Below, piece after piece: positions 20,268 to 51,513 of a DNA stretch of 64,000 nucleotides. The notes under the pieces were generated by a model, which worked only from the letters and a program-made list of their open reading frames with translations, did no database searches and was not told the DNA's origin. The translations under genes and the position numbers were made by a program. Source of the DNA: Bdellovibrio sp. ZAP7 (GTDB lineage Bacteria > Bdellovibrionota > UBA1018 > CAIMNF01); the NCBI GenBank assembly GCA_945874535.1, contig CAMCGZ010000005.1:29276-93275 (forward strand), written 5' to 3'. Numbering within the stretch: the first letter of the stretch is position 1; the number at the start of each line of letters is the position of its first letter.

Positions 20268-20270
20268 TCC

Positions 20271-24297: not shown

Positions 24298-24306
24298 TTA
24301 TACGAG

Positions 24307-24528: not shown

Positions 24529-24803
24529 TACGGAACGACCGGGGACAGGCCGTGGTCGAGTACATCATTCTCCTGGCGATTCTCGTCGGGCTTTATGGTG
24601 CGGTGATCCGACAGCTGAGTGAGCGGGATATTTTCCAGAAAATGCAAAAGCCCCTCACCCAGGATTTCGCCGCCACCTACCGCTACGGGCATCCGAAAGC
24701 CAAGGGAATGGACGATGGCGGACCAGTCAATATTCCAACAGTTCAGAGCAAGGGATACGACGACCAGAACTTCAGGATTTTTTACAATCCGACGATAGAG
24801 TGA
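24516..24803 (+). CDS. flp: Flp-family pilin, second paralogue (longer C-terminus)
   Basis: RG/QAVVEYIILLAILVGL motif. GTG 24516 or GTG 24525; the latter gives a GTGA overlap with the flp-1 stop. Confidence 0.75.
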   Translation: MAKVIRNDRGQAVVEYIILLAILVGLYGAVIRQLSERDIFQKMQKPLTQDFAATYRYGHPKAKGMDDGGPVNIPTVQSKGYDDQNFRIFYNPTIE

Positions 24804-25345: not shown

Positions 25346-25859
25346 TGAAGGGCAGAGCATACTTGAAGTCATCCTGTTTCTTCCCTTCCTTTTCATTCTG
25401 GTGGGGTTGCTGATCAAGATGAATACCGGCATCCAGATGGCGATCAATAACGCACGTTACGCCAGAGCCCAGCTTTTTGTACTGACCAACAATTCACCGG
25501 AATATCCCCGTCTGCAACTCCGGAAGAATCGACTCGTGAAAAATGCCCATGACATGTTGGTGGTAGGGGTTTCGGACCCTCTGGCGATCGAGGAAGCGGC
25601 TTCGGATGGAGATATGCCTGCCATTCCGCAGATCCAGTCGATCGGCAATAAGAAAGCAAAAGGAAGCAATGAGCGCGGCGAGGTGAAGTCCCGGACCGAC
25701 ATCCGGATCAGGGGGACTGCTACGATCTGCACTCAGAGTAATTCGGTGACCAAAGGGACACCTATCGACTCGCTTCAAATCACGGCCTTGGCGAACCAGC
25801 GCTGGCCGTTCGGGAAAATGGCCTGTCAGTATGACGGGTCCTGGATCGGAGATCAGTGA
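25335..25859 (+). CDS. TadE/TadG-like pseudopilin, second copy
   Basis: N-terminal EG/QSILEVILFLPFLFILVGLL. 174 aa. Overlaps neighbours at both ends. Confidence 0.65.
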   Translation: MDADEGQSILEVILFLPFLFILVGLLIKMNTGIQMAINNARYARAQLFVLTNNSPEYPRLQLRKNRLVKNAHDMLVVGVSDPLAIEEAASDGDMPAIPQIQSIGNKKAKGSNERGEVKSRTDIRIRGTATICTQSNSVTKGTPIDSLQITALANQRWPFGKMACQYDGSWIGDQ

Positions 25860-26716
25860 TGAATAGCAGGGCAATGACATTATCATTGGTGATGGCGGGT
25901 ATCGCCGTTTTCTTCGTGATGAGCTCCGTCTCGAGTATCGAGCAGAGTGCCACCATGAAATACGGAGACGAGGTGACTGTCCTGGTTGCCAAGCAGGATA
26001 TCCGGGAGATGGCCACCATTCTGGACGGCATGGTTGAAGCCAAGTCCGTGCCGAGGAACTTTATCGAGCCGACCGCGGTCAAGTTCGACGGCAAGCTCGA
26101 CGTAGAATCGGTCGAGGGCGCCAAATCCTATTCCATACAATCCAAAAGAATCGTGGGTAATGTTGCGATCGTGGCGATCAAGAAAGGAGAGCAGCTGACG
26201 CTGAACAAAATCACCGAACCGAGCATGCGGACCGGCCTCGCTCCCCAGGTGACTCCGGGTAAACGCGCCATCGCCGTGCCCATCGACGAATCGACCAGTG
26301 TCGCGAAGCTGGTGAAGCCGGGAGACCGCGTGGATGTGATCGCGGTGGTCCAATCGATGGGGGTCGGTGGTCGTGAAGTCAAGACCGCGAAGACGGTGTT
26401 TCAGGATGTCGTGATTCTCGCCGTGGGCCGCTCCATTGCGAACAATGTGGCCCGCCGGGTGGACGTCGATATGGGCGGAACAGCCCGCGTCCGTTCCTTG
26501 ACCGAGTACGACGGCTACAGTTCGGTGACTCTCGAACTCGATCCGGTGCAAGCCCAATTGGTGGCTGCCATCTACACAGATAACTCCAACAAGCTGATTC
26601 TCTCGCTCCGGAATAATGATGATGCCGATCGGGTGGCCATCAGTGCGCCATCCCGTGCGACCGATGTGCTGTCCGATAGTCAGCGTTTGCCGGCGAGTGG
26701 TGGAGGTCTAAAGTGA
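25856..26716 (+). CDS. cpaB: Flp pilus assembly protein CpaB/RcpC
   Basis: N-terminal TM anchor. A SAF-like segment is followed by an RcpC-like beta-rich region (RAIAVPIDESTSVAKLVKPGDRVDVIAV). Sits directly before the secretin gene. Confidence 0.75.
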   Translation: MMNSRAMTLSLVMAGIAVFFVMSSVSSIEQSATMKYGDEVTVLVAKQDIREMATILDGMVEAKSVPRNFIEPTAVKFDGKLDVESVEGAKSYSIQSKRIVGNVAIVAIKKGEQLTLNKITEPSMRTGLAPQVTPGKRAIAVPIDESTSVAKLVKPGDRVDVIAVVQSMGVGGREVKTAKTVFQDVVILAVGRSIANNVARRVDVDMGGTARVRSLTEYDGYSSVTLELDPVQAQLVAAIYTDNSNKLILSLRNNDDADRVAISAPSRATDVLSDSQRLPASGGGLK

Positions 26717-26717
26717 T

Positions 26718-28412
26718 ATGTTGAAGGCTTCTGTTTGGCTCCTGCTCAGCTTGATTTCCATTCCGCTCGAGACTCAGGCCCAACAGGAGGCGGCATCCCC
26801 GACTCCCGCTGAAGGCGAAGTCGAGGAGCGGAAGGAACGGAAGCGGCGCCGGGCGCCCGAAGAGAAAGCTTCTTATACCCGTTCCCGATATTCGGCGGAT
26901 CGTAGCGAGGCGGAGGCCGATCGTCGGGCCCTGCTCCTGACGGCCGGCGTTGACAAGACCATCGACCTCGAAGCGAGTCTAAAGATCACCGGTGACGCCA
27001 CACAGAGGGTCCTGGTGGGTAACCTGTCGGTTGTCAATGTGTTGCCCGTTCTGGTCGGTGATCGTAAGCAATTGATCTTCAAGCCCGCCGCAGTGGGGGA
27101 GACGAACGTGACCATCCGGGATGACTCCGGTAACGTCCGTCTGATTTTCGAGGTGATCGTCGCCCAGGCCAATCAGATCCGCAATCTCGAAAGATTGCGG
27201 GAGAATCTGAAAGAGGTGGAAGGCATCACGATCAATATCGAGGAGAAGAATATCGTTCTTCGCGGAGAAGTGCTCACTACAGCCGATTTCAGCACGGTGA
27301 ACAATGAGCTTGCGGGAGAGCTCTATGGTAAGGAAGTCATCAACAAGGTGAAGATGTCGCCCGTCACCCTGAATTTCCTGGCCAAGCGGATCGAGCAAGA
27401 CATCCAGGTATTCGCTCCGACCGTCCGGGCATCCGTGATCAACGGTAAGATCATTCTCGAGGGCACCGTCGACAGCGAGGGAGCCAAACAACGGGCTTAC
27501 AATCGCGCATATTATTACCTTCCCATGGTCCGGTTCAAAGAAAACGTCGGAAACGACCAGAATGTGATCGAGATGGAGCAGGACAAGAAGACGTTCATCC
27601 TCCAGTCTGACATCACCGTCCAGGCGCCACCTCCCAAGCGGGAGAGCAAGCTCGTCCGCATGACTGTTTACTTTGTCGAATTGGGCAAGGACTTCCTGAA
27701 AGCTTTCGGATTCAAGTGGCAGCCCGGATTCGCCTCGGACCCTAGCATCAGCGTCGGGACCACCGCGACCGGTGGGGTGGGAACCAATAGCGGTGGTTTC
27801 ACCTTCAGTGGAACCTTGACTTCACTGTTCCCTACGATCAGTTCTCCTCCGTCCAATGCCTCCTATGGCCGGATCATGAAATCCGCGACCATCATCGTGA
27901 AGAACAAGGAAGAGGGAGAAGTCCGGGATCAGGTGCAGGTGCCCACCCAGTCACTCGGCCAAGGCGGTACTCAGGGTAACGGTCAGGCCGTACCGGTGGG
28001 CTTCCACATCAAAATGACACCCACCATTCTCGATGGCCAGGATGTCGATGTGAACGTGGACATCGAGCAGAGTAACCAGGTCGGGAAGGGCGTGGGAGGG
28101 ACTCCGATCGTCGCCAGTCACAAGGTGAAAACCCGCTTGTACCTGAAATCAGGCGAAACCGCAGCATTGACCGCGGTGAACAAGCAAGACGTGGCCACAT
28201 CGTTCAATCGGGACGATGCCGCTCCGGGGGCTTTCCAGCAAACCCAGGGGGGCGCCCAGACCAAACCGCTCTTCAGTTTCCAGCGGTCGAAGAACATGTC
28301 GAAGTCGAGAGGTCAGTTTGTGATTTTCGTCAATCCGCAGATCATCGATAACGCCTCCGAGGGCACGGAAGACTTGAAGAAGAACTTCCGGATGACATCG
28401 AGCACTCGCTGA
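26718..28412 (+). CDS. cpaC: Tad secretin CpaC/RcpA
   Basis: Signal peptide, BON-like module (ITINIEEKNIVLRGEV), and a C-terminal secretin domain ending ...GQFVIFVNPQIID. Confidence 0.85.
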   Translation: MLKASVWLLLSLISIPLETQAQQEAASPTPAEGEVEERKERKRRRAPEEKASYTRSRYSADRSEAEADRRALLLTAGVDKTIDLEASLKITGDATQRVLVGNLSVVNVLPVLVGDRKQLIFKPAAVGETNVTIRDDSGNVRLIFEVIVAQANQIRNLERLRENLKEVEGITINIEEKNIVLRGEVLTTADFSTVNNELAGELYGKEVINKVKMSPVTLNFLAKRIEQDIQVFAPTVRASVINGKIILEGTVDSEGAKQRAYNRAYYYLPMVRFKENVGNDQNVIEMEQDKKTFILQSDITVQAPPPKRESKLVRMTVYFVELGKDFLKAFGFKWQPGFASDPSISVGTTATGGVGTNSGGFTFSGTLTSLFPTISSPPSNASYGRIMKSATIIVKNKEEGEVRDQVQVPTQSLGQGGTQGNGQAVPVGFHIKMTPTILDGQDVDVNVDIEQSNQVGKGVGGTPIVASHKVKTRLYLKSGETAALTAVNKQDVATSFNRDDAAPGAFQQTQGGAQTKPLFSFQRSKNMSKSRGQFVIFVNPQIIDNASEGTEDLKKNFRMTSSTR

Positions 28413-28430
28413 GAAAGGGACCAAGAATCA

Positions 28431-30581
28431 ATGGGACACATCATCGCAGTGGTAGGGGGAAAGGGAGGGGTCGGGAAGAGTGTCTTTGCCGCGAACCTCG
28501 CGATCGCCTACCAGATGAACTTCAAGCAGCGCTCCCTGATCATCGATCTCGACTTTCAGAGTCTGGGTGATCAAAACATCATTCTCGGCCTGAATCCTCC
28601 CAAGAATATCGTGGATGTGACCAAAGCCCAGGTGGGGACCTGGGATCCGAAGGCGATGACTCCGTTCCTTGCCAATTCACCGCAGGGTTTCAGTTTCATT
28701 GGAGCTCCGCGCGAGGCAGCCCTGGCCAAAGACATCGATCTGGACGGTCTCGGAAAGTTTCTGAAGGCGGCCGTCGGTGTTTTTCCATGGGTCGTGATCG
28801 ATTGCGGGAATGGCACCGATCCTCATGCATTGAAGGCGATGGAGCAAGCCAGCCTCATTTTTGTGGTGACCACACCTGATGTGATCGTCTTGAATCAAAC
28901 CCGGCGGATTCTCGGAAAGGTACAGGAACTCCTGTTCCCGCAGGAGATGGTGCAAGTGGTGGTGAACCGATACTCACCCAACAATGTGATCAACCCCCAG
29001 ATGATCCAAAAGAGTATCAACAAGGCTCCTTATTTCGCCATTCCCGAGGATGCCGCCACGTGTGAGGCCTCGCTTACCAAAAGCCAGCCCTTCACCATGG
29101 TGAATCCTGGAGCTGCGATTTCGAGAGCCTTCTCGGATCTGGTTCGTCGCATGGATCAGAGTAAGATGCTCGATCAACTGGCCAAGCTGAACAAACCGAC
29201 CGGCGTCGCTCAAAAGGCCGGTTCTGCTGCTGTTGTCGCTGTTGACGGTGGCGGTGAGAACGGGGGGTTGCTGTCTCGATCGAAATCGGCCCCGACCGAT
29301 CCCTGGACGAGCATGAAACTCCGGATCCACAAGGCACTCATCGACGTGGTCGACATGAAGAAGATGAATGTCGATGTCGCTGATTCGAAACAGCGCGAGG
29401 TCTTACGCGAAAAAACCCAAAAAGCGATTCTCGACGTCCTGGCCAAAGAGGATGTTTCGACTCTTTGCCCGACGCGTGAACTCAGAGCCCAGTTGGTCAA
29501 AGAGGTGTTGGATGAGGCGCTCGGTCTCGGACCGCTCGAGGACCTCCTTGCGGATGACTCGGTGACCGAAATCATGGTGAACGCCCGGGATCAAATCTAC
29601 GTCGAACAGGGTGGTAAGCCCGGATTGTCCAGAACCACTTTTTCGAGCGAGCAGCAGATGATGAACGTGATCGAGCGGATTGTCACTCCGCTCGGACGCC
29701 GGGTGGACGAGAAAACCCCCTATGTCGATGCCCGTCTCGCCGATGGATCACGGGTACACGTGATCATTCCTCCACTTGCGCTGAGGGGGCCCACGATCAC
29801 GATCCGAAAATTCCCCAAAAAACGGATCATGGCCTCGGACTTGGTGAAGTTCGGTTCCATGACACAGGAAATCGCAGATTTCCTTCGAGCCTGTGTCGAG
29901 GCCAAACTCAATATCGTGGTGTCGGGGGGCACCGGCTCCGGTAAGACGACTTTGCTGAATGTGCTTTCAAACTTCATTCCGGCGACCGAACGGATCATCA
30001 CGGTTGAGGATGCTGCCGAACTCCAGCTTGGACAGGAGCACGTAGTCCGGCTCGAGACCCGACCGAAGAACATCGAGGGCGAGGGTGAGGTCTCCATCCG
30101 GGATCTGATCAAGTGCTGTCTCCGGATGCGGCCGGACCGGATCGTGGTCGGGGAGTGTCGGGGAGGAGAGGCCATGGACATGCTTCAGGCGATGAACACC
30201 GGCCACTCCGGATCGCTGACCACCGTTCACGCCAATAATCCTAGAGAATGCATCGGACGACTGGAGACCCTGGTGATGATGGCGGGAATGGGTTTGCCGC
30301 TCAAGGCCATTCGCGAGACGATTGCCAGTGCGGTCAATCTCATCATCCAGCAGTCCCGTCTGACTGACGGGACTAGGAAAGTGACTTATGTCTCCGAGGT
30401 ACTCGGGATGCAGGGCGAAACCGTGACGATCCAAGACATCTTCATCTACAAGCAAGAGGGTCTGGATAAGAACCGTAAGATTATTGGCAGATTCGTGCCC
30501 ACCGGCTTCATTCCGAAATTCGTGGAAGAAATGGAAGCAAAGGGCATGAAAATCTCACGGGGCCTTTTCGCGGTCAAATAA
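28431..30581 (+). CDS. Fusion protein: N-terminal MinD/ParA-type (TadZ/CpaE-like) ATPase domain + C-terminal CpaF/TadA secretion ATPase
   Basis: The deviant Walker A VVGGKGGVGKSV sits at residues ~8-19. After a ~60-aa Ala/Gly-rich linker comes a full CpaF-type domain (Walker A SGGTGSGKTT, VGECRGGEA, TGHSGSLTTVHAN). One uninterrupted 716-aa frame. Confidence 0.85.
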   Translation: MGHIIAVVGGKGGVGKSVFAANLAIAYQMNFKQRSLIIDLDFQSLGDQNIILGLNPPKNIVDVTKAQVGTWDPKAMTPFLANSPQGFSFIGAPREAALAKDIDLDGLGKFLKAAVGVFPWVVIDCGNGTDPHALKAMEQASLIFVVTTPDVIVLNQTRRILGKVQELLFPQEMVQVVVNRYSPNNVINPQMIQKSINKAPYFAIPEDAATCEASLTKSQPFTMVNPGAAISRAFSDLVRRMDQSKMLDQLAKLNKPTGVAQKAGSAAVVAVDGGGENGGLLSRSKSAPTDPWTSMKLRIHKALIDVVDMKKMNVDVADSKQREVLREKTQKAILDVLAKEDVSTLCPTRELRAQLVKEVLDEALGLGPLEDLLADDSVTEIMVNARDQIYVEQGGKPGLSRTTFSSEQQMMNVIERIVTPLGRRVDEKTPYVDARLADGSRVHVIIPPLALRGPTITIRKFPKKRIMASDLVKFGSMTQEIADFLRACVEAKLNIVVSGGTGSGKTTLLNVLSNFIPATERIITVEDAAELQLGQEHVVRLETRPKNIEGEGEVSIRDLIKCCLRMRPDRIVVGECRGGEAMDMLQAMNTGHSGSLTTVHANNPRECIGRLETLVMMAGMGLPLKAIRETIASAVNLIIQQSRLTDGTRKVTYVSEVLGMQGETVTIQDIFIYKQEGLDKNRKIIGRFVPTGFIPKFVEEMEAKGMKISRGLFAVK

Positions 30582-30599
30582 CCCCAGTATCATGAGGGT

Positions 30600-31475
30600 A
30601 TGAGTTTCGCGATTCCTCATTGGCTGCTCGGCCTCGTCGTATTCGTCTCGGCGTTGTTGGTTGCCTATCAATTCTCGGGAAGGATTCTCGATTGGGTGAG
30701 ATTCCACTCCATCGGAACCCGGGATTACATCGCAGACAAACTCAAGTTGATGATGATCGATCTTCCTCTCGAGAAGATCCTCATGTACCAGGTCGGGTTC
30801 TCTTTCGGTCTGGGAGGAATGGTGTTTTTGGCTTGTTTGCCGAATTTCGCGGCAGGCGGCGTACTGGGCGGAGTGGTGGCGATCGCAGCTTGGTTTCTTC
30901 CGAAGCCGATCGTGAACGTTCTTTATCAGAAACGTGTGGATCGTTTCGTCGAGCAAATGGTCGATGGACTCGGTCTCATGTCCAACGGCATGAGGTCGGG
31001 GCTTTCGGTCGCCCAGGCGATGGGACTGGTCGCTCAGGAGATGCCGGATCCGATCAAGTCGGAATTCGAATTGGTGCTGAATCAGAACAAGCTCGGTTCC
31101 TCACTCGAGTCCGCATTTATCGATTTGTCCAAACGGGTGATCGCGGATGAAGTGGAAATGTTCGTGACCTCGGTGGTGATTCTGAAGGAGACCGGCGGAA
31201 ATTTGGCGGAAACCTTCGATACCATCACCACCTTGATTCGCGAGCGGATCAAAGTGGAAAATAAGATCAAAGCGATGACCGCTTCCGCGTTCTGGCAAGG
31301 GATGATCTTGCTCGGAGTTCCGCCCTTCATGGGTTTGACTCTTTCCCAGTCCGATCCTGAACTGATGAGGCCCATGTTCGAGACCTGGCTCGGTTGGTTG
31401 GGTCTATCTACCGTGGCAATTTTGATGATCGTGGCTTATTTTGTAATCAAGAAGGTGACAAAAATCGATGTTTGA
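30600..31475 (+). CDS. tadB: Type II secretion system F-family protein (TadB-like)
   Basis: T2SSF sequence VTSVVILKETGGNLAETFDTITTLIRER, with N- and C-terminal TM helices. Confidence 0.8.
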   Translation: MSFAIPHWLLGLVVFVSALLVAYQFSGRILDWVRFHSIGTRDYIADKLKLMMIDLPLEKILMYQVGFSFGLGGMVFLACLPNFAAGGVLGGVVAIAAWFLPKPIVNVLYQKRVDRFVEQMVDGLGLMSNGMRSGLSVAQAMGLVAQEMPDPIKSEFELVLNQNKLGSSLESAFIDLSKRVIADEVEMFVTSVVILKETGGNLAETFDTITTLIRERIKVENKIKAMTASAFWQGMILLGVPPFMGLTLSQSDPELMRPMFETWLGWLGLSTVAILMIVAYFVIKKVTKIDV

Positions 31476-31485
31476 GGTGAGAAAA

Positions 31486-33177
31486 ATGACCAGAGTTTTG
31501 ATCTTGTTGGGAGCATTGCTTTCGGTGTCCAGTGCATTCGCCCGCGCGGATGTGAGTCTTCGGAACGGAAACTTTTTCGTGTCACTGAGAGACATCTCTT
31601 ATCCGGGGGGGATGGAGCCCAAGATCGAGCGGGTGTACAACTCGAAATCCGATTTTCACGGGATGTTCGGATACAGTTGGGGCACCGAATACGAAACGCG
31701 CCTGTCTTTCGATCCTGACGGAAGCCTCCTCCTGACCGAATACGGTGGAGGTGCGAATATCCGTTTCAGTCCAAAGACCTATTCCGCGAATGACGTCGAT
31801 GAAGGGATCAAGTCAGTGGTGAGTGCCGCCCAGAAAGCGGGAACCATCACCAGTGCCAAGGGGCTTGAGGAATACCGGAAGCGTTTGAAAGAAAACCCTG
31901 AATTCAGGGCCAAACAGTACGCGATCTTTGTGAACAAAGGAAGCCTGCAGCGAAAAGCGATTGTGGATGGAACCCAGTTCATTTCGACCGATTACCAGTA
32001 CCAGTACCTCACACGCGTGAAAGGCGGGTACACGCGGGTGATGGAGGCTGGTATCATCCAGAAGTTCAATGAAGCAGGTCGTTTGGCCCAAATCATGGAT
32101 CGAAACAGGAATTTCGTGAACTTCACCTACGATACCAACGGTCGGGTCGCCCAGATGATCGACAATCAGAATCGTAAGATGAATTTCTCTTACAATCAGT
32201 TCGGTCTGGTGGAGCGGATTGTTGGCGAAAGCGGCAAGAAAGCCGAGTTCAGGTACTCAAAAGAGGGATTCCTAGTCTACAGCAAGGATGACGCCGGTGT
32301 GGAAAACACTTTCAAGTACACCGCCGATCAGTATCGCAATCTTTCAGAGATCGGATACCCGAACGAACGGAACGCCAAGGGCGAATCGAAGCGGATGATC
32401 GTGGGTTATTACGGTCCGGAAAAGAATTCGAGCGTGAAATCGGTCGTGAATCTCGACGGGACCGTGAATGAGTACGAATACGAAATCGGCGGGAAGACTC
32501 CCGGTTACTATTCGGTGCGGGTGGTGTTGAAAGACTCATCCGGTGCCAAGCTGAATGACTCCAGGTATGAGTATTTCTACAAGACCAAGCCGAGCGGGGA
32601 GGAGTTCACCGCCCGGATGGTCACCACAGTGGATGGTGAGAAAACCGAGACTGTTTACGACGAAAAACTCGGCTATCCCCTGAAGATCACCGCGAACGGC
32701 AAAACCACCACGATGGAGTACGACATGAAGGGACGGATGGTCCGTAAGGTCACACCGCTCCACACCACGACGCTCACATACGATCCGGCGGTGGGTAAGG
32801 TGTCCAAGGTTGTCAAAAAAGTGACCAGTGGAACGGTGATCTGGAGTGAGTTCGAATACGATAAGGCCACCGGGAACCTCCTGGTCGCCCGCAACAGCGA
32901 TAAAAAGCTGGTGAAGCTGATCTACGATGGTCAAGGCCGGATCAGTGCATTGGTGGATCAGGCGGGCCGCCAGCTCACCTTCAGGTACAACGAGCTCTCG
33001 AAGCCGGTCGAGATCCGGGATGCCAAGCTAGGAACCGTCAAGTTCACCTACAAGAACAGTGGCGAGGTGGACAAGGTGGACAGCAACGGGGGCGCCAGTG
33101 TTTCTGTTGAGGTGATGAGGGCTTTGCAGAGCCTGATCGACATCACCGCCCCGGCGGGCGTCACGATGTCGATTTGA
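31486..33177 (+). CDS. Secreted YD/RHS-repeat protein without recognisable toxin domain
   Basis: Signal peptide MTRVLILLGALLSVSSAFA. Many YD-type repeats (FTYDTNGRVAQMIDNQNRKMNFSYNQFGLVERI, TYDPAVGKVSKV, IYDGQGRISALVDQAGRQLTFRYNE). No PxxxxDPxGL core-end motif. GAGG SD 8 nt before ATG 31486. Confidence 0.8.
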   Translation: MTRVLILLGALLSVSSAFARADVSLRNGNFFVSLRDISYPGGMEPKIERVYNSKSDFHGMFGYSWGTEYETRLSFDPDGSLLLTEYGGGANIRFSPKTYSANDVDEGIKSVVSAAQKAGTITSAKGLEEYRKRLKENPEFRAKQYAIFVNKGSLQRKAIVDGTQFISTDYQYQYLTRVKGGYTRVMEAGIIQKFNEAGRLAQIMDRNRNFVNFTYDTNGRVAQMIDNQNRKMNFSYNQFGLVERIVGESGKKAEFRYSKEGFLVYSKDDAGVENTFKYTADQYRNLSEIGYPNERNAKGESKRMIVGYYGPEKNSSVKSVVNLDGTVNEYEYEIGGKTPGYYSVRVVLKDSSGAKLNDSRYEYFYKTKPSGEEFTARMVTTVDGEKTETVYDEKLGYPLKITANGKTTTMEYDMKGRMVRKVTPLHTTTLTYDPAVGKVSKVVKKVTSGTVIWSEFEYDKATGNLLVARNSDKKLVKLIYDGQGRISALVDQAGRQLTFRYNELSKPVEIRDAKLGTVKFTYKNSGEVDKVDSNGGASVSVEVMRALQSLIDITAPAGVTMSI

Positions 33178-35795: not shown

Positions 35796-37208
35796 ATGAA
35801 AAATCATGATTGTGATGTAGTGGTGATCGGTGCGGGGCCCGCAGGTTATGTCTGTGCGATCCGCTTGGCCCAGCTCGGAAAGAAAGTCGTGGTCGTGGAA
35901 CGCACCCACGTGGGAGGAGTCTGTCTCAATGTGGGCTGCATTCCTTCAAAAGCACTGATTCATGCGGGGAGCACTTTCGACAAGATCCGACATGCCGGAT
36001 CGATGGGGATCAGTGGAACCGAATCCGCCAAGCTCGACATGAAACAACTCCAAGGCTGGAAGGGGGAGGTGGTCAAGAAGCTCACCGGCGGTGTCGCTCA
36101 GCTCTTGAAGGCCAACGGCTGTGCGCTGATTTCCGGTGATGCCCGGTTTCTCTCCACCACGGAAGTCGCGGTGAAAACCGCGGATGGCGAGGACAAGGTC
36201 CGCTTCAAGCAGGCGGTGATCGCTACCGGTTCACGTCCCGCTGAGATCCCCGGTTTCGAGGTGGATCAAAAACTCGTTCTCGATTCCACCGGAGGACTGG
36301 CGCAGGATGCGGTTCCCGCGAACTTGCTCTGTGTGGGGGGTGGATACATCGGCCTCGAGCTGGGCACTTTTTACGCCAAGGTCGGCTCCCGGGTGACGGT
36401 GGTGGAGGCGGGTCCTGCGCTGCTTGGAATCATCGATCCCGACCTGGTTCGCGTGGTTCAAAAAGGCCTCGAAAAGCGGGGAGTGAAGATTCAGACTTCG
36501 ACCACAGTGAAATCCGTGAAGAAACTCCAAAACGAGGTCGAGGTGGTGTTCGCCTCTTCAGCCGGTGAAGTCAAACAGAAGTTCGACCGGGTGCTCGTGA
36601 CCATCGGCAGAACCCCGAACACAGCCGGTTTGGGGTTGGACAAGGCCGGTGTGAAAATGGACTCGAAGGGATTCATTCCGGTCGACTCCCAACGTCGGAC
36701 CTCGGTTCCGAATATTTTTGCAATCGGAGACGTGGCAGGGCAGCCGCTTCTTGCGCACAAGGGCTCTAAAGAGGGCATGGTCGCCGCAGAGGCGATTGGC
36801 GGGATGAAGACGGTTTATGACGTGCGGGCGATGCCGGCCGTGATCTTCACCGATCCGGAGATTGCCACTGTTGGCCTCACGGAAGCCGAGGCCAAAGCCA
36901 AGGGGTTTTCGGTCAATGTCGGGGTTTTCCCTTTTGCCGCGAACGGCAGGGCTCTCTCGGTCGGTGAACCTGACGGGATGGTGAAACTCGTGAGTGATGC
37001 CAAAAAGGGCACCTTGCTCGGGTGCCACATCGTGGGTGCTGAAGCCTCGAATCTCATTGCCGAGGCGACACTTGCCATCGAGATGGGAGCGCACGTCGAG
37101 GATCTCGCGCTCACTGTTCACGCTCATCCGACACTTCCGGAGACGATCATGGAAGCGGCTGAGGTCGCTATCGGGCATCCGATTCACATTTTCAAACCGA
37201 AGAAATGA
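35796..37208 (+). CDS. lpd: Dihydrolipoyl dehydrogenase (E3)
   Basis: GAGPAGY FAD motif, redox disulfide CLNVGCIPSK, C-terminal HAHPTLPE. ATG 35796 is preceded by GGAGG. Confidence 0.95.
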   Translation: MKNHDCDVVVIGAGPAGYVCAIRLAQLGKKVVVVERTHVGGVCLNVGCIPSKALIHAGSTFDKIRHAGSMGISGTESAKLDMKQLQGWKGEVVKKLTGGVAQLLKANGCALISGDARFLSTTEVAVKTADGEDKVRFKQAVIATGSRPAEIPGFEVDQKLVLDSTGGLAQDAVPANLLCVGGGYIGLELGTFYAKVGSRVTVVEAGPALLGIIDPDLVRVVQKGLEKRGVKIQTSTTVKSVKKLQNEVEVVFASSAGEVKQKFDRVLVTIGRTPNTAGLGLDKAGVKMDSKGFIPVDSQRRTSVPNIFAIGDVAGQPLLAHKGSKEGMVAAEAIGGMKTVYDVRAMPAVIFTDPEIATVGLTEAEAKAKGFSVNVGVFPFAANGRALSVGEPDGMVKLVSDAKKGTLLGCHIVGAEASNLIAEATLAIEMGAHVEDLALTVHAHPTLPETIMEAAEVAIGHPIHIFKPKK

Positions 37209-37909
37209 CGGGTTTCGAAGTTCTGTCCTTACCCGGAATCCGGAAGTTCTCCGAGGTGCATCAGCTCATGCTGGACCTGGTGGAGCGGCGGATCCGGGGA
37301 GAAGTTGCCGACACCTTCATTTTTTGCGAGCACCAGTCCGTGATTACCCGTGGGCGAGGCTTGCAGTGGTCCGCGCAAAGATCAGATCGGGCCATGCCGC
37401 CTCCTTTGGTGCCCGAGGGAACGGACTATGTGGAAATCGAGCGAGGAGGGGATTTGACCTGGCACGGGCCCGGGCAACTCGTGGTGTATCCGATCCTCTC
37501 TCTCGGTGGCTCCGGCCGTTGGGGCAGTCATCTGGGGCGCGACATCGAGAAGTATGTCCGGTTTCTGGAGGAGTGGTGGATCCGCGCACTGGCGCGAGAG
37601 GGGGCCTTTGCCAATCGTGACCCGGCTGGAAGCGGTGTGTGGTCGGGAAACCGGAAGCTCGCATCGGTCGGTGTTGCGGTCAGAAAATGGGTGACCTTTC
37701 ATGGACTCGCCATGAATGTGGTGAATGACCTCGCACCTTTCCGGGATTTCTCTCCCTGTGGATTCGGTGGTGAGATCATGACACGGATTTCAGATCTGGA
37801 AGGGATCGCTCCCGATCTCAAGGGTGGGGATTGGCGGAGTCTCTGGGAGTCGCGGCTGATCCGGGAACTCGAGGATTGGGACGGAACCATCGATCGGCAA
37901 GAAGGGTGA
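37205..37909 (+). CDS. lipB: Octanoyltransferase
   Basis: RGGDLTWHGPGQLVVYPI and KLASVGV motifs. ATGA overlap with lpd. Confidence 0.9.
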   Translation: MTGFEVLSLPGIRKFSEVHQLMLDLVERRIRGEVADTFIFCEHQSVITRGRGLQWSAQRSDRAMPPPLVPEGTDYVEIERGGDLTWHGPGQLVVYPILSLGGSGRWGSHLGRDIEKYVRFLEEWWIRALAREGAFANRDPAGSGVWSGNRKLASVGVAVRKWVTFHGLAMNVVNDLAPFRDFSPCGFGGEIMTRISDLEGIAPDLKGGDWRSLWESRLIRELEDWDGTIDRQEG

Positions 37910-38465
37910 GAGCCGCGCCTCCGATGACATCCCAGATGTAATGTTGCTTGGTGGTCAAAGTGGACAGACAGATCAGTATCGCCCAGATGAAAAATATCAC
38001 GAATGCCCGGGGTCGCTCCCGAAGCAGCAGGACCGAGGTCAGTACCGATCCGACATGAAGGCTCGGGAAGCAATTCAATGGCGAGTCGCCCGACCGTTGG
38101 AGCTCGAATAAGAATCGGCTGCCCGGATCCAGTCCGGCAGGTAAGGGAAACCACTCTCTCGGGTAGGATGTCGGGAAGAGTGTGAAAATCAGTGCGCTGA
38201 TTGCGAGCAGGAACAGGGTCGACTTCAGGTAGCGCTGAAGGGCTTCAGGATTACGTGTGATCACAAAGGCTGAGATCAGCAAAGGGTACTCGCTCAGGTA
38301 AATCCAGATCGTTTCAGGGACAAAGGGAATCGCCGAATCCGCAAAGGTCAGGGGAAGTTGGACAGGTTGGAAGAGGGGGTAGTGATTCGGGATCAGGTAG
38401 AGTGGGGCCGCCAGTCCGAACAGGCCCACTCCCCAGGTCGCTTTGGTCTGGGCTCGCATACCCAT
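37818..38465 (-). CDS. PAP2-superfamily membrane protein of the sphingomyelin/IPC-synthase-like (PAP2_C) type
   Basis: Polytopic membrane protein with CFPSLHVGS and TKQHYIWDVIGG, i.e. the S-x-H and H-Y-x-x-D-V catalytic motifs. The 3' end overlaps lipB by 92 nt (convergent). Confidence 0.6.
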   Translation of the reverse strand: MGMRAQTKATWGVGLFGLAAPLYLIPNHYPLFQPVQLPLTFADSAIPFVPETIWIYLSEYPLLISAFVITRNPEALQRYLKSTLFLLAISALIFTLFPTSYPREWFPLPAGLDPGSRFLFELQRSGDSPLNCFPSLHVGSVLTSVLLLRERPRAFVIFFIWAILICLSTLTTKQHYIWDVIGGAALTLLADRWFRPNPRVPGSAATPRDSANPHP

Positions 38466-38502
38466 TACCCTAAGCGTTTTTCCGGGGCACGGCGACCGAA
38501 AC

Positions 38503-38526
38503 CTGTATGGAAATTGGACAGGTGTC
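38503..38526 (+). promoter_or_regulatory. Dyad upstream element CTGT-N11-ACAGGTGTC (candidate enhancer-binding-protein site), copy 1
   Basis: CTGTATGGAAATTGGACAGGTGTC starts 135 bp upstream of the sigma-54 promoter at 38638. It matches the copy at 38939 at 18 of 24 positions. Confidence 0.5.
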
Positions 38527-38637
38527 AGGCGCTGGCTGGAAGCGGATCACAGCAACCAGGAGGCGGGTCCGAGGGCAGGGGAGTATTTCCTTTGGATTGA
38601 CCGGAGCTTGTCCGGTTCCACCCAGACGGACCCGTCG

Positions 38638-38653
38638 TGGCACGACCTCTGCA
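38638..38653 (+). promoter_or_regulatory. Sigma-54 (-24/-12) promoter, copy 1
   Basis: TGGCACGAcctCTGCA versus consensus TGGCACG-N4-TTGCW. GG and GC are correctly spaced. It starts 78 nt upstream of ATG 38716. Confidence 0.7.
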
Positions 38654-38715
38654 ATAGTGTGGACAAGCGGTACGTCGAGTGGAAGTAGAGAGAACGAGAA
38701 CAGTCCGGAGGACGT

Positions 38716-38901
38716 ATGAAAATCTTCACCCTTTTGGCCCTTTTTACCGCATTCGCATCCCCAGCCATCGGCGGAGTCGTGTCGAGCAAGCAATCAGGTA
38801 AAGCCCATTGCACCAAGAACGAACAAGATCATCAGGTCAAGTTCGCTGCCAGCTCCGGCACCCAGGCGGGCAAGTCGAATCAGGCCGGATCCGGCCGCTG
38901 A
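38716..38901 (+). CDS. 61-aa signal-peptide-bearing small peptide, paralogue A
   Basis: Sequence MKIFTLLALFTAFASPAIG/GVVSSKQSGKAHCTKN...QAGSGR. GGAGG SD. Paralogous to 39143-39322. Confidence 0.6.
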   Translation: MKIFTLLALFTAFASPAIGGVVSSKQSGKAHCTKNEQDHQVKFAASSGTQAGKSNQAGSGR

Positions 38902-38938
38902 TTCATCCCACCCCCATTCGAAGATTCGGGAAGCGAAA

Positions 38939-38962
38939 CTGTCTAAAGATTGGACAGGCGTC
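38939..38962 (+). promoter_or_regulatory. Dyad upstream element CTGT-N11-ACAGGCGTC, copy 2
   Basis: CTGTCTAAAGATTGGACAGGCGTC starts 123 bp upstream of the sigma-54 promoter at 39062. Confidence 0.5.
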
Positions 38963-39061
38963 GTCTTCCCGATCGTCGTTCCAGCTCGAAACGAATAGGG
39001 TTGCGCCTTGGAAGGTCTTGTAACCTAAGGAGCATTCCAGACCTTGGGGGGCTCCTTCCTC

Positions 39062-39077
39062 TGGCACACCCCATGCA
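39062..39077 (+). promoter_or_regulatory. Sigma-54 (-24/-12) promoter, copy 2
   Basis: TGGCACAccccATGCA, with GG-N10-GC spacing correct. It starts 81 nt upstream of ATG 39143. Confidence 0.65.
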
Positions 39078-39142
39078 TTTATGTCGGGTGAGCGGTACGT
39101 TGTGCGAGAACGGGAATCTTTCCCATCCCAACCGGAGTGACT

Positions 39143-39322
39143 ATGAAACTGATGACTTTGATTGCCCTCCTGACCGCGTTCGCATCTCCCGCTTCTGCTG
39201 CAGTGGTGTCGAGCAAGCAACTCGGCAAGGCTCTCTGCTCGAAGAATCGCGCCGACTTGGTCATGGCTTCGCTCTCAGTTGCAAAAGGACGCGCTTCTCA
39301 GAATGCCGGATCTGGACGGTAA
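39143..39322 (+). CDS. 59-aa signal-peptide-bearing small peptide, paralogue B
   Basis: Sequence MKLMTLIALLTAFASPASA/AVVSSKQLGKALCSKN...QNAGSGR. GGAG 5 nt upstream of ATG 39143; the track starts at GTG 39137. Confidence 0.6.
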   Translation: MKLMTLIALLTAFASPASAAVVSSKQLGKALCSKNRADLVMASLSVAKGRASQNAGSGR

Positions 39323-39335
39323 TCCCGACCCGGGT

Positions 39336-39626
39336 TCAATTTTTCTGTTCCGAACGTTCGATGATCTGTCTCAATGCCTTCTGATCTTCGGGGCTGATGT
39401 CGGCATCGAGTTTATGCAGTTCTTTCATGCGGGCATCGAGGCTGGCTTTGTATTCGTCAGTGAGCAACTTGGCCTGTTTCTCCGGGCTGTAAACACCGGC
39501 GATTTTCACCCATTTTTCGATGTGACGTGAGACCGTCACACCCTGAACTTCGATCACATGGGACAATACGAGCACGATCAGGGCGAATGCCGAATATTTG
39601 AAGATCGAGTAAAGAAAAGAGAACAT
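39336..39626 (-). CDS. 96-aa N-terminally membrane-anchored protein of unknown function
   Basis: N-terminal TM helix YSAFALIVLVLSHVI followed by a charged helical region. Located 10 nt downstream of the CheY-like gene. Confidence 0.5.
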   Translation of the reverse strand: MFSFLYSIFKYSAFALIVLVLSHVIEVQGVTVSRHIEKWVKIAGVYSPEKQAKLLTDEYKASLDARMKELHKLDADISPEDQKALRQIIERSEQKN

Positions 39627-39636
39627 CTAGGATCCC

Positions 39637-40047
39637 TCAGGCGGCCCCGCCCGCGGCAGCGTTTTGAACCGAACCTGCGGAGATACTCTCCTGGAGCACC
39701 CTCATGACCTCATCTGTCTGGAAGGGCTTGATCACGTAATCTTTAGCTCCGGCTTGGATGGCTTCAGTCACCAGGTTCTCCTGGGTCATGGCAGAAAGAA
39801 TGACAATCTTTGCCTCGGGGTCGCGCTTTAAAATCACGCGTGTGGCATCGATCCCGTTCATTCTCGGCATCACCAGATCCATGATGACCAGATCAGGGCG
39901 GGTTTCAAAATAGAGACGTACGGCATCGTCGCCGTTTTCGGCTTCGCCCACCACCCGGTAGCCACGGTTCTGAAGGATCTGCTTCAGTGTCTTACGGACA
40001 TAGGGAATATCATCGGCGATCAGAACGGTTTTGAATGCATCCTTCAT
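39637..40047 (-). CDS. Single-domain CheY-like response regulator
   Basis: The sequence MKDAFKTVLIADDIPYVRK...DLVIMDLVMPRMNG...AKDYVIKPF carries the acidic pocket, the phospho-acceptor Asp and the conserved Lys. Start at ATG 40047, with GAGGGG SD; the track ORF's 75-aa extension is unsupported. Confidence 0.85.
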   Translation of the reverse strand: MKDAFKTVLIADDIPYVRKTLKQILQNRGYRVVGEAENGDDAVRLYFETRPDLVIMDLVMPRMNGIDATRVILKRDPEAKIVILSAMTQENLVTEAIQAGAKDYVIKPFQTDEVMRVLQESISAGSVQNAAAGGAA

Positions 40048-48389: not shown

Positions 48390-50351
48390 ATGGAGTTGTT
48401 GAAGCAGACTTCTCTCATCCTCGGCCTGGTGGCCCTCACGATCGGAGTCTGGACCCTGTTCCGGCACTGGCGCAACCGGGTGTCCGTTCTCTTCTCTTTT
48501 CTGTGCTTCCTCGTGTCAGTCTGGGCACTGAGCTTTGTCTCTCACGCGACTCTTTTCGGTCGCCTTTCCTACGACATCCACTTGTTTTGTCATGTGCTGC
48601 TCGCTCCGACCGGGGTCCTGCTCATGTCGAGCTTTCTGGTTCGTAAAATCGACGCATTCAGTCGCTTTCTGTTTCTGACGGCCCTGGTCGGTGGTGCCGG
48701 GCTGTGTTTCCTGATCGTGTTCTCCCTCGGGCATGGGGAGTGGTTCCGTCTGGCCACGGGTTTCTGGCCCTCATTCATCCTGGTGGAATACATCCACCTG
48801 CTCTTTCTCGAGGCACGGAGAAGCGCCGAAGCCGGTTTCGGACACCTCCCGAGAGGCCGGAAGATGGTCCTCTATCTCGGTCCGATTCTCTCACTTGCAT
48901 TTTGTACCTTCGATCACATTCCAGGGATGGGGACCGGGATTCCGTCGATCGGCAATCTCTTGTTCGCCGTCTATTTGGGGTTCGCAAGTCAGATCATCAA
49001 TCCCAGAAAGCTTTTCGGTCTCGATTCGCTCGTGTCCCGTTTCCTGGCGGTGCTCACTTTGTCTCTCATTCTCACCGGATTCTTCGCACTCCTGTACAAC
49101 ACGATCAGCAGGTCGTTTCCATTGTTTTTGCTCAACTCTTTCCTGATTTCGTTTGCGGTACTCGCTCTCTGGAGTCCCTTGGTGACGTTCTTCAGGTTCA
49201 TGGGGCGTAGATTTTTTCCTCTTACACGGAACGAGGAGAAAGACACGGTCGATCGCTTCAGGATCCTGCTCTCTGCGGTGACCTCGCTCGAGGACTTGCA
49301 TGAGGGACTTCGGCAGTTTTTCATGAAAACCCACGGGGCCGAGCGGGTCGAGATCACTCTGGATCCCTCCGGTGTGAGTTTACCTGAAAATGTCGAATCC
49401 TACTTTTTCGAGCTCCGCGAGAAGGGGCTCCCTCCGGTATTGCATCGGGGAATCCTCGAGCAGGAGCGCGATGCCCTGTATACCCGTGAGAGCCGGAAAC
49501 CGATCGAGATGATTCTTGAATACCTCGATGCCGGGGGCTTCGACGGGGTTCTTCCGGCGTATTCGAATGAAAGGGTCGTGGGACTCATCCGGATCCGCAT
49601 TCCTTCCGGGCGATGGAGCCCGGAAACCCGCTTTTTTCCGATTCCGGCCGCACCTGACTTGTTGAGCGAACTCGGGGACCAGGTCTGCAGGCTCGCTCGC
49701 ATGGGCGAGGTCCGCGAACGTGAGAGACTCATTTTGCTCGGAGAGATGGCCGCCGGTCTTGCTCACGAGATCCGGAACCCTCTCGGTTCCATCCGCGGAG
49801 CAGCCGATCTGCTTCAGGACTCCGGGCCCTTTGTCGAGGTCATCCGGGATGAGACTGCGCGTCTGAACCGTCTGGTCTCGCAATTTCTCGATTTTTCGAG
49901 GAATCCACAGGACGGCCGGCAACGGATCGACCTGTGCGCGCTCCTCCCTCGAGCGATCACCAACACCGCATTCCTGGTTCCTTCGGTGGTTGATTTGCAT
50001 TTTGACGGAAAGGATCATCCTGTTCCAGTTGAGGTTGTTCCCGATTCGATCCAACAGGTTCTTTCCAATCTGATTCAGAATTCGGTCAAGGCCCTCGAGG
50101 GGATTCAGAATGCCAAGATCATCGTGAAGGTCGAAGAAAACGGTTTCTCGGTAACGGATAACGGTATCGGGATGAGCGAAGCGGTGAGATCCCGGGTACT
50201 CGAGCCGTTTTTCACCTCCTCCGGTACGGGGACCGGGCTCGGACTTGCGATTTGCGAGCGCCTGATCCGCCACGATCGCGGATGGCTCAAGCTCGAGTCG
50301 AGCCCCGGCCAGGGAACACGAGTGGAAGTGGGGTATCCGGATGCGCGATAA
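48390..50351 (+). CDS. Sensor histidine kinase with large polytopic N-terminal sensor region
   Basis: About 7-8 N-terminal TM helices, H-box LAHEIRNPLGSI, and N/G boxes (LIQNSVKA, DNGIGM, GTGLGLAI). Confidence 0.88.
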   Translation: MELLKQTSLILGLVALTIGVWTLFRHWRNRVSVLFSFLCFLVSVWALSFVSHATLFGRLSYDIHLFCHVLLAPTGVLLMSSFLVRKIDAFSRFLFLTALVGGAGLCFLIVFSLGHGEWFRLATGFWPSFILVEYIHLLFLEARRSAEAGFGHLPRGRKMVLYLGPILSLAFCTFDHIPGMGTGIPSIGNLLFAVYLGFASQIINPRKLFGLDSLVSRFLAVLTLSLILTGFFALLYNTISRSFPLFLLNSFLISFAVLALWSPLVTFFRFMGRRFFPLTRNEEKDTVDRFRILLSAVTSLEDLHEGLRQFFMKTHGAERVEITLDPSGVSLPENVESYFFELREKGLPPVLHRGILEQERDALYTRESRKPIEMILEYLDAGGFDGVLPAYSNERVVGLIRIRIPSGRWSPETRFFPIPAAPDLLSELGDQVCRLARMGEVRERERLILLGEMAAGLAHEIRNPLGSIRGAADLLQDSGPFVEVIRDETARLNRLVSQFLDFSRNPQDGRQRIDLCALLPRAITNTAFLVPSVVDLHFDGKDHPVPVEVVPDSIQQVLSNLIQNSVKALEGIQNAKIIVKVEENGFSVTDNGIGMSEAVRSRVLEPFFTSSGTGTGLGLAICERLIRHDRGWLKLESSPGQGTRVEVGYPDAR

Positions 50352-51513
50352 AGTCGTCATCATTGATGATGAAGCCAATCTCAGGATGATTCTCGAGGCC
50401 ACCTTGGTCCGGGCCGGCTACGATGCCGTGGCATTTTCGGGTTTCGAAGAGGCCAGGAACGTGATCGACACGGAGGATCTTGCAGCGGTGCTGACCGATC
50501 TCCAGATGCCCCATCACGATGGCATGGATGTGCTTCAGTATTGTCACCGTTACACTCCCGATCTTCCAGTGATTCTTCTCACAGCTTACGGAACGGTGGA
50601 GCGTGCTGTGGCCGCTCTCAAGGCGGGAGCATTCGACTTCGTGGTGAAACCCTTCGATCACGGAGATCTGTTGCGAACGCTCGAAAAAGCCTGCCAGAGT
50701 CGGCGTTTCAGGCGTCGTGAGCCCGCACTTGAAATCATGAGTGCGGTCGGAGTCGGTCCCGTGCCCGTACCCCTGTTCGGTCGTGACTCATCCACAGTTC
50801 GACTGAGGGAAGAGGTTGAAAGGATTGCGAAGACGGACTCCTCGGTCTGGATGTCGGGAGAGGTCGGTACCGGGAAGCGTTCCGTAGCCTATGAGATCCA
50901 TAGGAAGTCCGATCGATCCCGTCATGCGTTTGTCCAGGTTTCTTGTGCCACCCTGCCTCCTGTTTTTCAGATGACAGAGTTGTTCGGGGTCGAAAAGGGC
51001 GCGAGCCCGGTGAATCATTTCAGTAAACCGGGAGTCTTCGAGTTGGCCCAGGGGGGGACACTTTTTATCGAAGAAATCGACAGTTTGTCGATCGAAACCC
51101 AGAACGCGGTATTCAATATGCTCGAGACCGAGAGTTTCTCGAGGGTGGGCGGGGTTCGTTTGTTTCCCACCGATTTCAGGATCATCGCGACCAGTTCGCA
51201 CGATCTCGACCGTGAGGTCCGGGAGGGGCTGTTCCATGTGGAGCTCTATTATAAGCTCACCGCTTCGGTGCTCGGACTCCTACCGCTCAGGGACCGTACT
51301 GCAGACCTCGAATCCGACCTTTTGCCGTATTTTCTGTCACGGGCTTGCAGGCGTCGTGGGGTTCCATTGAAGTCGATCGATCTAGATGCACTCTCCTGGT
51401 TAATTTCGCGTGAATGGCCAGGAAATCTCGGAGAGCTCGAACGGGCGATCCAAAGGGCGGTCGACCACGCTACCGGAGATGTTCTCCGGGTTCAGGATTT
51501 TACGGGTGTTTGA
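50341..51513 (+). CDS. NtrC-family response regulator: REC + sigma-54-type AAA+ domain, GAFTGA loop degenerate, no DNA-binding domain
   Basis: REC (IIDDE, LTDLQMP, VVKPF). AAA+ Walker A GEVGTGKRS, ELFGVEKGASPVN in place of ELFGhEKGAFTGA, GGTLFIEEID, WPGNLGELE. The protein ends ~25 aa later without a Fis-type HTH. Confidence 0.8.
   Translation: MRDKVVIIDDEANLRMILEATLVRAGYDAVAFSGFEEARNVIDTEDLAAVLTDLQMPHHDGMDVLQYCHRYTPDLPVILLTAYGTVERAVAALKAGAFDFVVKPFDHGDLLRTLEKACQSRRFRRREPALEIMSAVGVGPVPVPLFGRDSSTVRLREEVERIAKTDSSVWMSGEVGTGKRSVAYEIHRKSDRSRHAFVQVSCATLPPVFQMTELFGVEKGASPVNHFSKPGVFELAQGGTLFIEEIDSLSIETQNAVFNMLETESFSRVGGVRLFPTDFRIIATSSHDLDREVREGLFHVELYYKLTASVLGLLPLRDRTADLESDLLPYFLSRACRRRGVPLKSIDLDALSWLISREWPGNLGELERAIQRAVDHATGDVLRVQDFTGV

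Follow-up and report, generated by a model that had tools for sequence, protein, structure and literature searches.

The 64,000-nucleotide stretch of DNA analyzed here, referred to as the window, originates from Bdellovibrio sp. ZAP7 (assembly GCA_945874535.1, contig CAMCGZ010000005.1, positions 29,276 to 93,275 of the forward strand). Between positions 38,503 and 39,322, the window contains two tandem open reading frames (ORFs), designated pepA and pepB, which encode small peptides with predicted signal peptides. Each gene is preceded by a dyad, designated upstream activator sequence (UAS), by a sigma-54-type -24/-12 element, and by a conserved motif close to the predicted transcription start (+1). 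An initial annotation of the window had described this region as a tandemly duplicated cassette comprising an enhancer-like dyad, a promoter, and an exported peptide gene of unknown family. All the features that it reported were found where it had placed them, and its structural claims were upheld by comparative tests. The locus comprises the following features, listed in order.

38503-38528, plus strand: UAS-A, dyad CTGTatggaaattggACAG with an adjacent half-site (GTGTCAG), presumed site of a bacterial enhancer-binding protein (bEBP), 135 bp upstream of the -24 element; the arms are kept in L007-L010 and the interior varies.
38637-38653, plus strand: P_A, sigma-54-type -24/-12 element gTGGCACGACCTCTGCA, with GG at 38639-40 and GC at 38651-52; predicted start at ~38664.
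38663-38675, plus strand: +1-proximal motif A (ACAAGCGGTACGT), conserved family-wide.
38716-38901, plus strand: pepA, precursor of 61 amino acids (aa), with a GGAGG Shine-Dalgarno sequence 5 nt ahead of the ATG; ratio of nonsynonymous to synonymous substitution rates (dN/dS) of 0.03-0.3.
38939-38971, plus strand: UAS-B, dyad CTGTCtaaagattgGACAG followed by the conserved CGTCGTCTTCCCG, 123 bp upstream of the -24 element; 82% identity versus 49% for the spacer.
39061-39077, plus strand: P_B, sigma-54-type -24/-12 element cTGGCACACCCCATGCA, with GG at 39063-64 and GC at 39075-76; predicted start at ~39088.
39088-39100, plus strand: +1-proximal motif B (GTGAGCGGTACGT), 95% identity among B orthologues.
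39143-39322, plus strand: pepB, 59-aa precursor; dN/dS of 0.02-0.14.

Coding status and predicted export of the peptides

The proteins encoded by the two ORFs, which the initial annotation regarded as clear paralogues, are 56% identical (BLASTP, E = 6e-20). Common to both are a hydrophobic region (h-region) with the sequence ..LTAFASPA.., the motif VVSSKQxGKAxCxKN, which contains a single Cys, and the C-terminal sequence AGSGR. Good Shine-Dalgarno sequences precede both genes. The possibility that the ORFs might not be under purifying selection had been raised at the outset. Comparison of pepA and pepB with their orthologues revealed dN/dS ratios of 0.02-0.3 at dS values of 0.3-2.6, which are near saturation. 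Thus, pepA and pepB are genuine protein-coding genes under strong purifying selection.

Both precursors display the hallmarks of Sec-dependent signal peptides cleaved by signal peptidase I (SPase I), namely a basic n-region (MK), an h-region of 12 residues (range of 10-15 for such signals) with a mean Kyte-Doolittle hydropathy of 2.4, and small residues at positions -3 and -1. The signal peptide of PepA reads MK / IFTLLALFTAFA / SPAIG|G, in which the predicted cut is AIG|G or IGG|V, and that of PepB reads MK / LMTLIALLTAFA / SPASA|A, with a canonical ASA|A site (vertical bars indicate the cuts). These hallmarks are kept family-wide, since a Pro at -5 or -6 and small residues at -3 and -1 (ASA|A, AIG|G, AVA|G, or AIA|E) were present in essentially all retrieved members. 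Based on these features, the two precursors are predicted to be exported and cleaved. The predicted mature forms of PepA (~41-42 aa, pI ~9.9) and PepB (~39-40 aa, pI ~11) each contain six or seven basic residues and one Cys within 39-42 aa. The single Cys occupied a fixed position of the mature part in the 35 members retrieved out of 35 and in both window peptides. The family core, (V/I)VSSK(Q/E)xGKAxCxK(N/M)xxD, is conserved and the tail is variable. The shared AGSGR ending reported in the initial annotation is present in both window peptides but does not define the family, as it is confined to the subclade containing the window.

The signal peptides do not end with a lipobox ([LVI][ASTVI][GAS]C). 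The only Cys is located ~12 residues past the predicted cut, in the context GKA(H/L)C, and the peptides are therefore not lipoproteins. Pfam and NCBIfam scans of both peptides revealed no family above noise, a TrbK match (E = 0.096) being dismissed as signal-peptide noise, and a profile search of the PDB with the peptide family detected no relative. The peptides contain neither a double-glycine nor a pilin-type leader (motifs G|FTLIE and G|xxxxEY), and no maturase or exporter gene is present among the neighbors of the peptide genes, which comprise lipoate/2-oxoacid dehydrogenase genes and those for PAP2, a 96-aa protein, a CheY-like regulator, CNNM, and Lon. Neither peptide has the attributes of a known bacteriocin, of a precursor of a ribosomally synthesized and post-translationally modified peptide (RiPP), or of a pilin. 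The assertion that they fit no recognized bacteriocin, RiPP, lipoprotein, or sorting-signal family was accordingly borne out by the Pfam, NCBIfam, and PDB searches.

Distribution and duplication of the peptide genes

The construction of a family profile, which had been suggested in the initial annotation, enabled searches for conserved relatives, and these were found. A profile search of ~5.8 billion proteins yielded 14 clusters. Searching 1.84 billion representatives exhaustively with HMMER added more distant members, and after a second profile search the number of clusters stood at 34. Every cluster is uncharacterized: they contain proteins of 58-72 aa, which are annotated as 'hypothetical protein' or unnamed and have no Pfam domain. 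The three genome matches were metagenome-assembled genomes, two of them assigned to 'Proteobacteria bacterium' (both from ponds) and one to 'Bdellovibrionales bacterium'. The remaining matches came from metagenomes, as short contigs or as assemblies, and one of these is also at NCBI; the source habitats were ponds and lakes.

Gene order was constant at every locus with enough flanking sequence. Tad pilus genes, a gene encoding an RHS protein, lipA, the E2 gene, lpd, and lipB precede the peptide gene or genes. The downstream order is a convergent gene for a 96-aa protein, a gene for a CheY-like receiver, two CNNM/CorC genes, and genes for Lon, a pseudouridine synthase, a DnaJ/helix-turn-helix (HTH) protein, and a ParA-like protein. 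Since the same order was found throughout, the family corresponds to one orthologous locus of one bacterial lineage.

One copy of the peptide gene was present in the distant members L014, L015, L017, L020, and L021, and two copies were present in the window, L001-L004, L006-L009, L011-L013, and L022. The single copy is probably the ancestral state, with two copies being specific to the window's clade. Pairwise DNA alignment of the two window cassettes delineated a duplicated unit extending from the dyad through the stop codon. The proposal of a duplicated cassette therefore holds for the extent of the unit, and is narrowed by the observation that the duplication is clade-specific, the relatives having a single gene copy preceded by two dyads. 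Within a genome, copies A and B were 52-58% identical, versus 75-93% identity between A-type orthologues and pepA. The duplication is therefore old and the copies have not been homogenized.

Conserved non-coding elements and proposed regulation

The sequences TGGCACGACCTCTGCA at 38638 and TGGCACACCCCATGCA at 39062 each contain one mismatch relative to the 16-nt consensus TGGCAC-N5-TTGCW. The TGGCAC of P_A and P_B are located 78 and 81 nt ahead of the respective ATG, as initially described for these near-consensus -24/-12 promoters, and such an element is present at every family member examined. Both strands of the 64 kb contain exactly two matches to TGGCAC-N6-TGC (38638 and 39062), in agreement with the statement that these are the only good sigma-54 matches in the window. 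Shuffled windows contained 0.29 such matches on average, and 5 of 100 shuffles gave at least two. The other one-mismatch matches to TGGCACN5TTGCW in the window either did not contain the GG or were located within coding sequence. The GG and GC are separated by exactly 10 nt, as in sigma-54 promoters, and GG-N10-GC within TGGCA(C/T)-N5-nTGCA was invariant in all lineages examined, including those with TGGCAT. No sigma-70-like site was detected within 38300-39700.

The dyad CTGT-N11-ACAG is located at 38503 and 38939, 135 and 123 bp upstream of TGGCAC, respectively. These are the distances that the initial annotation gave for a dyad conserved upstream of each promoter, and the arms were indeed conserved across orthologues. 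A third, stray copy of CTGT-N11-ACAG is located at 57613, within a recN-like gene, and no further module combining a dyad and a promoter was found in the window or in ~144 kb of related loci. Segment identities were obtained as mean pairwise values in an anchored, ungapped comparison of five orthologues. For copies A and B, respectively, identity was 84% and 82% for the dyad block, 91% and 78% for the -24/-12 element, and 40% and 49% for the spacer between them. Drift affected the 11-nt interior and the ~100-bp spacer but spared the arms, (C)TGT(C)...(G)ACA(G). Conserved arms around a freely changing interior are characteristic of a protein site rather than of a hairpin. The distance between dyad and promoter was invariant among close orthologues despite the ~40-49% identity of the spacer.

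We determined the position of the dyads in each lineage by counting from TGT to TGGCAC (134 bp for copy A and 122 bp for copy B of the window). In single-copy genomes, a pair of dyads separated by exactly 21 bp precedes an additional half-site; the two dyads are located at distances of 145/124 bp (L014 and L018), 144/123 bp (L017), or 134/113 bp (L019 and L021). UAS-A is the counterpart of the distal dyad of this double dyad. In the duplicated clade, only the distal dyad is complete, and the proximal dyad has been reduced to its left half, copy A reading ACAG-cTGTCAG. The sequence CGTCGTCTTCCCG at 38959-38971 is conserved in B-copy orthologues and is located at the position of the second dyad of single-copy relatives; it could represent either a half-site that has degenerated or a distinct site. 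The 134 (A) and 122 (B) distances were found in the window, L007, L008, and L009, and were matched by L010 (A only) and L013 (B only). Elsewhere in the duplicated clade, the distances were 121/111 in L006 and 131/119 in L022. Within one genome, the A and B distances always differed by 10-12 bp, i.e. about one helical turn. The difference of one helical turn that the initial annotation had pointed out is thus found within each genome. Between lineages, helical phasing is less strict: L022 weakens the claim that it is fixed in all of them, and the absolute phase drifts by up to about half a turn. As is typical of bacterial enhancers, which are inverted repeats located ~80-150 bp upstream of the -24 element, often paired on one helical face, and conserved independently of the spacer, the dyads are located 111-145 bp upstream, are paired in single-copy genomes, and are conserved despite the drift of the spacer.

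The third conserved element, GGTA(A/T)GCGG(C/T)ACGT (core GCGGYACGT), is located 29-34 nt after the T of TGGCAC, corresponding to ~+2 to +12. It was present in all but one member examined (L006, L009, L014, and L017-L022 among the carriers), the exception being copy A of L007, which reads GTGGTACGT. This motif, of which the window contains only two copies, was conserved more strongly than the remaining 5' untranslated region (5'UTR). The window contains GCGGTACGT only at 38667 and 39092. The similarity previously noted between the two 5'UTRs was therefore found, with GCGGTACGT in both copies, although its conserved part is limited to the short +1 motif (GGTAWGCGGYACGT) and involves no RNA structure. 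A search of Rfam (E <= 1) over 38300-39700 gave no match, single-sequence folds of six 5'UTRs had z-scores of +0.3 to +1.8 and were no better than shuffles, and RNAalifold predicted zero pairs in 12 UTRs. RNA structure was thereby rejected as the explanation for the conserved leader. The presence of such a motif at the predicted start of the transcript might indicate that an additional regulator is involved.

The three footprints (dyad, -24/-12 element, and +1 motif) precede the peptide gene at every related locus with enough upstream sequence. Lapses from this pattern were one-base deviations only, e.g. in the dyad of L011/L012 B and in the +1 motif of L007 A. P0017, P0020, P0024, and the 7.7-kb P0013/P0014 contig were left out of this comparison of non-coding regions.

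We propose, with a probability of roughly 75%, that a lineage-restricted exported-peptide gene is present as two tandem paralogues, pepA and pepB, and that each constitutes an independent enhancer-dependent unit under the control of sigma-54 and an NtrC-type activator. Phylogenetic footprints shared by about a dozen diverged loci support the initial description and its structural interpretation, and the promoter and dyad sequences suggest that transcription of both genes depends on sigma-54 and an activator. According to this proposal, the sigma-54 RNA polymerase would form a closed complex on TGGCAC-N5-nTGCA. An NtrC-family enhancer-binding protein, as a dimer or higher oligomer, would bind to the TGTC-N9-GACA-type dyad located 111-145 bp upstream. 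The ancestral paired dyads, two helical turns apart, would suit dimers assembling into an AAA+ oligomer. The activator would loop to the promoter and open it by ATP hydrolysis. It would have to contain a DNA-binding domain and to be encoded outside the 64-kb window. Both genes would thus be off until one signal turned them on together. The 59-61-aa products would be exported by Sec and cut by SPase I, releasing basic, largely disordered peptides of ~40 aa, with the conserved mature N-terminus as the functional core. In the periplasm or outside the cell, the lone conserved Cys would probably form an intermolecular disulfide (between PepA and PepB, in a homodimer, or with a partner), which would be the most economical role for such a residue in the periplasm.

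A candidate activator was sought among the window ORFs, Pfam scans covering 48 of the 60 obtained by greedy longest-ORF selection with a minimum length of 80 aa. The sole protein with a Sigma54_activat domain among the scanned ORFs is encoded at 50341-51513 (plus strand). This 390-aa protein is NtrC-like and consists of a REC domain, an AAA+ domain, and its lid. The gene is located downstream of a histidine kinase gene (48390-50351, plus strand), and the protein stops right after the AAA+ lid, without an HTH. Alignment to NtrC1 of Aquifex aeolicus indicated that its GAFTGA loop reads GASPVN, and the regular expression GAFTGA had no match over the window. With no HTH and a degenerate GAFTGA loop, the 50341-51513 protein is therefore unlikely to be the sigma-54 activator; it may be an AAA+ regulator no longer talking to sigma-54. 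The initial annotation had likewise reported no enhancer-binding protein with a DNA-binding domain encoded nearby, and the window's sole sigma-54-type AAA+ protein indeed has no HTH.

Several observations weigh against the proposed regulation by sigma-54 and an NtrC-type activator. Neither rpoN nor an HTH-bearing enhancer-binding protein is encoded in the 64-kb window, whose only sigma-54-type AAA+ protein is devoid of both the HTH and the GAFTGA loop. In L022 (2795-3321), both dyad distances are 3 bp shorter than in the window, which preserves the 12-bp offset between A and B but shifts the absolute phase. In addition, the dyad conforms to the T-N11-A rule for LysR-type regulators. Scanning 16 spacers for the integration host factor (IHF) motif WATCARNNNNTTR revealed one perfect match (L006 B) and a few one-mismatch sites, none of them in the window. 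The strongly conserved +1 motif is left unexplained by a model involving only sigma-54 and an activator. Regarding the products, the cleavage sites of the signal peptides were called by eye. Finally, the AlphaFold2 model built from a 16-sequence alignment contained no more than the signal helix plus one short helix, with a pLDDT of 55 and a pTM of 0.17; the pLDDT value therefore provides no structural clue.

The fit to the LysR rule leads to an alternative in which the dyad is bound by a non-AAA+ protein, either a LysR-type regulator or a repressor, and sigma-54 is activated from solution by an activator devoid of a DNA-binding domain, e.g. the 50341-51513 protein. Such activators exist (FlgR and CtcC), the window's only sigma-54-type AAA+ protein has no HTH, TGT-N11-ACA fits the T-N11-A box, and the sole literature match to TGT-N11-ACA or TGTC-N9-GACA was a LysR regulator. 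However, the loop replaced by GASPVN in the 50341-51513 protein is the one that contacts sigma-54, and dyads located 111-145 bp upstream of the -24 element, in 21-bp pairs and at a fixed distance, are organized as bEBP enhancers rather than as LysR sites (-65/-35), making this alternative improbable. We consider less probable still that the TGGCAC...TGC elements are not promoters and that transcription starts from a sigma-70 or extracytoplasmic function (ECF) promoter, the conserved blocks being operators. The conserved ..ACGT.. block downstream could belong to another type of promoter, but its offset from TGGCAC/TGCA varies by 5 nt (29-34), in contrast to a -35/-10 pair, the region contains no sigma-70-like site, and the positions that are invariant across about a dozen diverged loci are exactly the GG and GC located 10 nt apart.

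Other alternatives concern the gene products. Since the pep units are small and duplicated, of the sigma-54 type, and conserved at the 5' end, they could act as small RNAs (sRNAs) like those of the glmY/glmZ or Qrr types, in which case the ORFs would be incidental. This explanation is scarcely credible in view of dN/dS ratios of 0.02-0.3 at saturated dS, of the conservation of the signal peptide, Cys, and Shine-Dalgarno sequence, and of the lack of any Rfam match or conserved fold. The signal peptides could instead be uncleaved anchors, PepA and PepB being small proteins of the inner membrane whose basic tail extends into the periplasm. Many small proteins of bacteria are single-pass membrane proteins, and the h-region is long and very hydrophobic; nonetheless, the Pro at -5/-6 and small -3/-1 residues found in essentially all retrieved members, together with an N-terminus containing only one basic residue, make an uncleaved anchor unlikely. 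A bolder view, to which we give little credence, is that the peptides represent a new class of sigma-54-gated, Sec-exported signaling or effector peptides of a freshwater Bdellovibrionales-like lineage, acting via the invariant Cys, e.g. by formation of a disulfide-linked A-B heterodimer or by covalent capture of a partner, with the +1 motif GGTAWGCGGYACGT as a second layer of control.

Related systems, neighboring genes, and biological significance

In Enterobacteriaceae, glmY and glmZ, which are controlled by GlrR (QseF), are, like pepA and pepB, two homologous small genes with their own sigma-54 promoters. Several TGTC...GACA inverted-repeat activator sites are similarly located 100-200 bp upstream. 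The GlrR site TGTCN10GACA was experimentally defined at the sigma-54 promoters of glmY and glmZ, and conservation of promoter and site was also key evidence in that study (PMC3045617). The half-sites of the pep dyad are similar to those of the GlrR site, but the dyad, in which TGTC-N9-GACA is equivalent to TGT-N11-ACA, does not match the site of the GlrR/QseF regulon. Since its spacing is one base shorter, only an analogy is claimed. The two systems also differ by their phylum, by their products (sRNAs versus predicted exported peptides), by the role of IHF, whose sites are essential at glmY/glmZ but not consistently recognizable in the pep spacers, and by the location of the activator gene, as glrR adjoins glmY whereas no activator gene is linked to pepA and pepB.

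The Qrr/LuxO system of Vibrio also comprises several paralogous small genes, each of which keeps a sigma-54 promoter and activator sites, an organization that provides co-induction and a dosage effect; it differs by its products, which are sRNAs, and by the LuxO site (TTGCA-N3-TGCAA). NifA binds to TGT-N10-ACA sites located ~100-150 bp upstream of -24/-12 promoters, in a helical-phase-dependent manner. The pep dyads have TGT/ACA half-sites at a similar distance, but the analogy goes no further, as the spacing is N11 and there is no nif context. For zraP of E. coli and Salmonella, as proposed for pepA and pepB, a sigma-54-type unit drives production of a small exported protein: zraP is a single-gene unit controlled by ZraSR, whose response regulator is of the NtrC type, and encodes a small Sec-exported envelope protein. 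ZraP is a folded protein of ~140 aa belonging to the CpxP/Spy family, and zraSR is divergently adjacent to zraP. In contrast, no cognate two-component system is adjacent to pepA and pepB, their products have no sequence similarity to ZraP, and Pfam finds nothing for them.

A gene for a PAP2-family phosphatase (37818-38465, minus strand) is located between lipB and pepA and was seen only with the duplicated cassette. It was found at duplicated loci with upstream flank, i.e. in the window, L001-L004, L006, and the P0013/P0014 contig, and as a remnant in L022. Because 38 nt separate its start codon from dyad A, its promoter must overlap the spacer between the enhancer and the promoter of pepA. 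Its 3' end overlaps lipB (37205-37909) by 92 nt. On the other side of the cassettes, the minus strand at 39336-40047 encodes the 96-aa protein, which has an N-terminal hydrophobic segment and no family match, and the stand-alone CheY-like receiver. Throughout the lineage, both genes are oriented convergently with respect to the peptide gene, and the stop codons of pepB and of the 96-aa gene are 13 nt apart. Farther upstream, a Tad/Flp-type pilus cluster (17321-33177, plus strand) contains TadB/C-like genes, RcpC/CpaB, a secretin, a 716-aa CpaE-CpaF fusion, and three consecutive genes for FHA-domain proteins (18600-23572). The gene for the DUF6531/RHS-repeat protein is located after this cluster, and the Tad and RHS block is collinear in the distant relatives L020 and L021.

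The regulatory logic of the locus is the standard enhancer-dependent sigma-54 pattern, which is already known, and so teaches little that is new about mechanism. The new elements are an orphan family of small, probably exported peptides limited to one uncultured freshwater lineage, the clade-specific duplication of the peptide gene together with its enhancer and promoter, and the conserved motif at the transcript start. The series of enhancer positions (145/124, 134/113, 134 and 122, 131 and 119, and 121 and 111 bp) constitutes a useful comparative data set for enhancer geometry, to which the reduction of two dyads to one and a half following the duplication also contributes. Our best guess for the biological role of PepA and PepB is that of signal-induced envelope, periplasmic, or extracellular peptides acting via their conserved N-terminal 18 residues and Cys. 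An unannotated family of 34 clusters with a very clean, conserved putative on/off switch is among the few tractable experimental handles on signal-dependent expression in an uncultured lineage of ponds and lakes.

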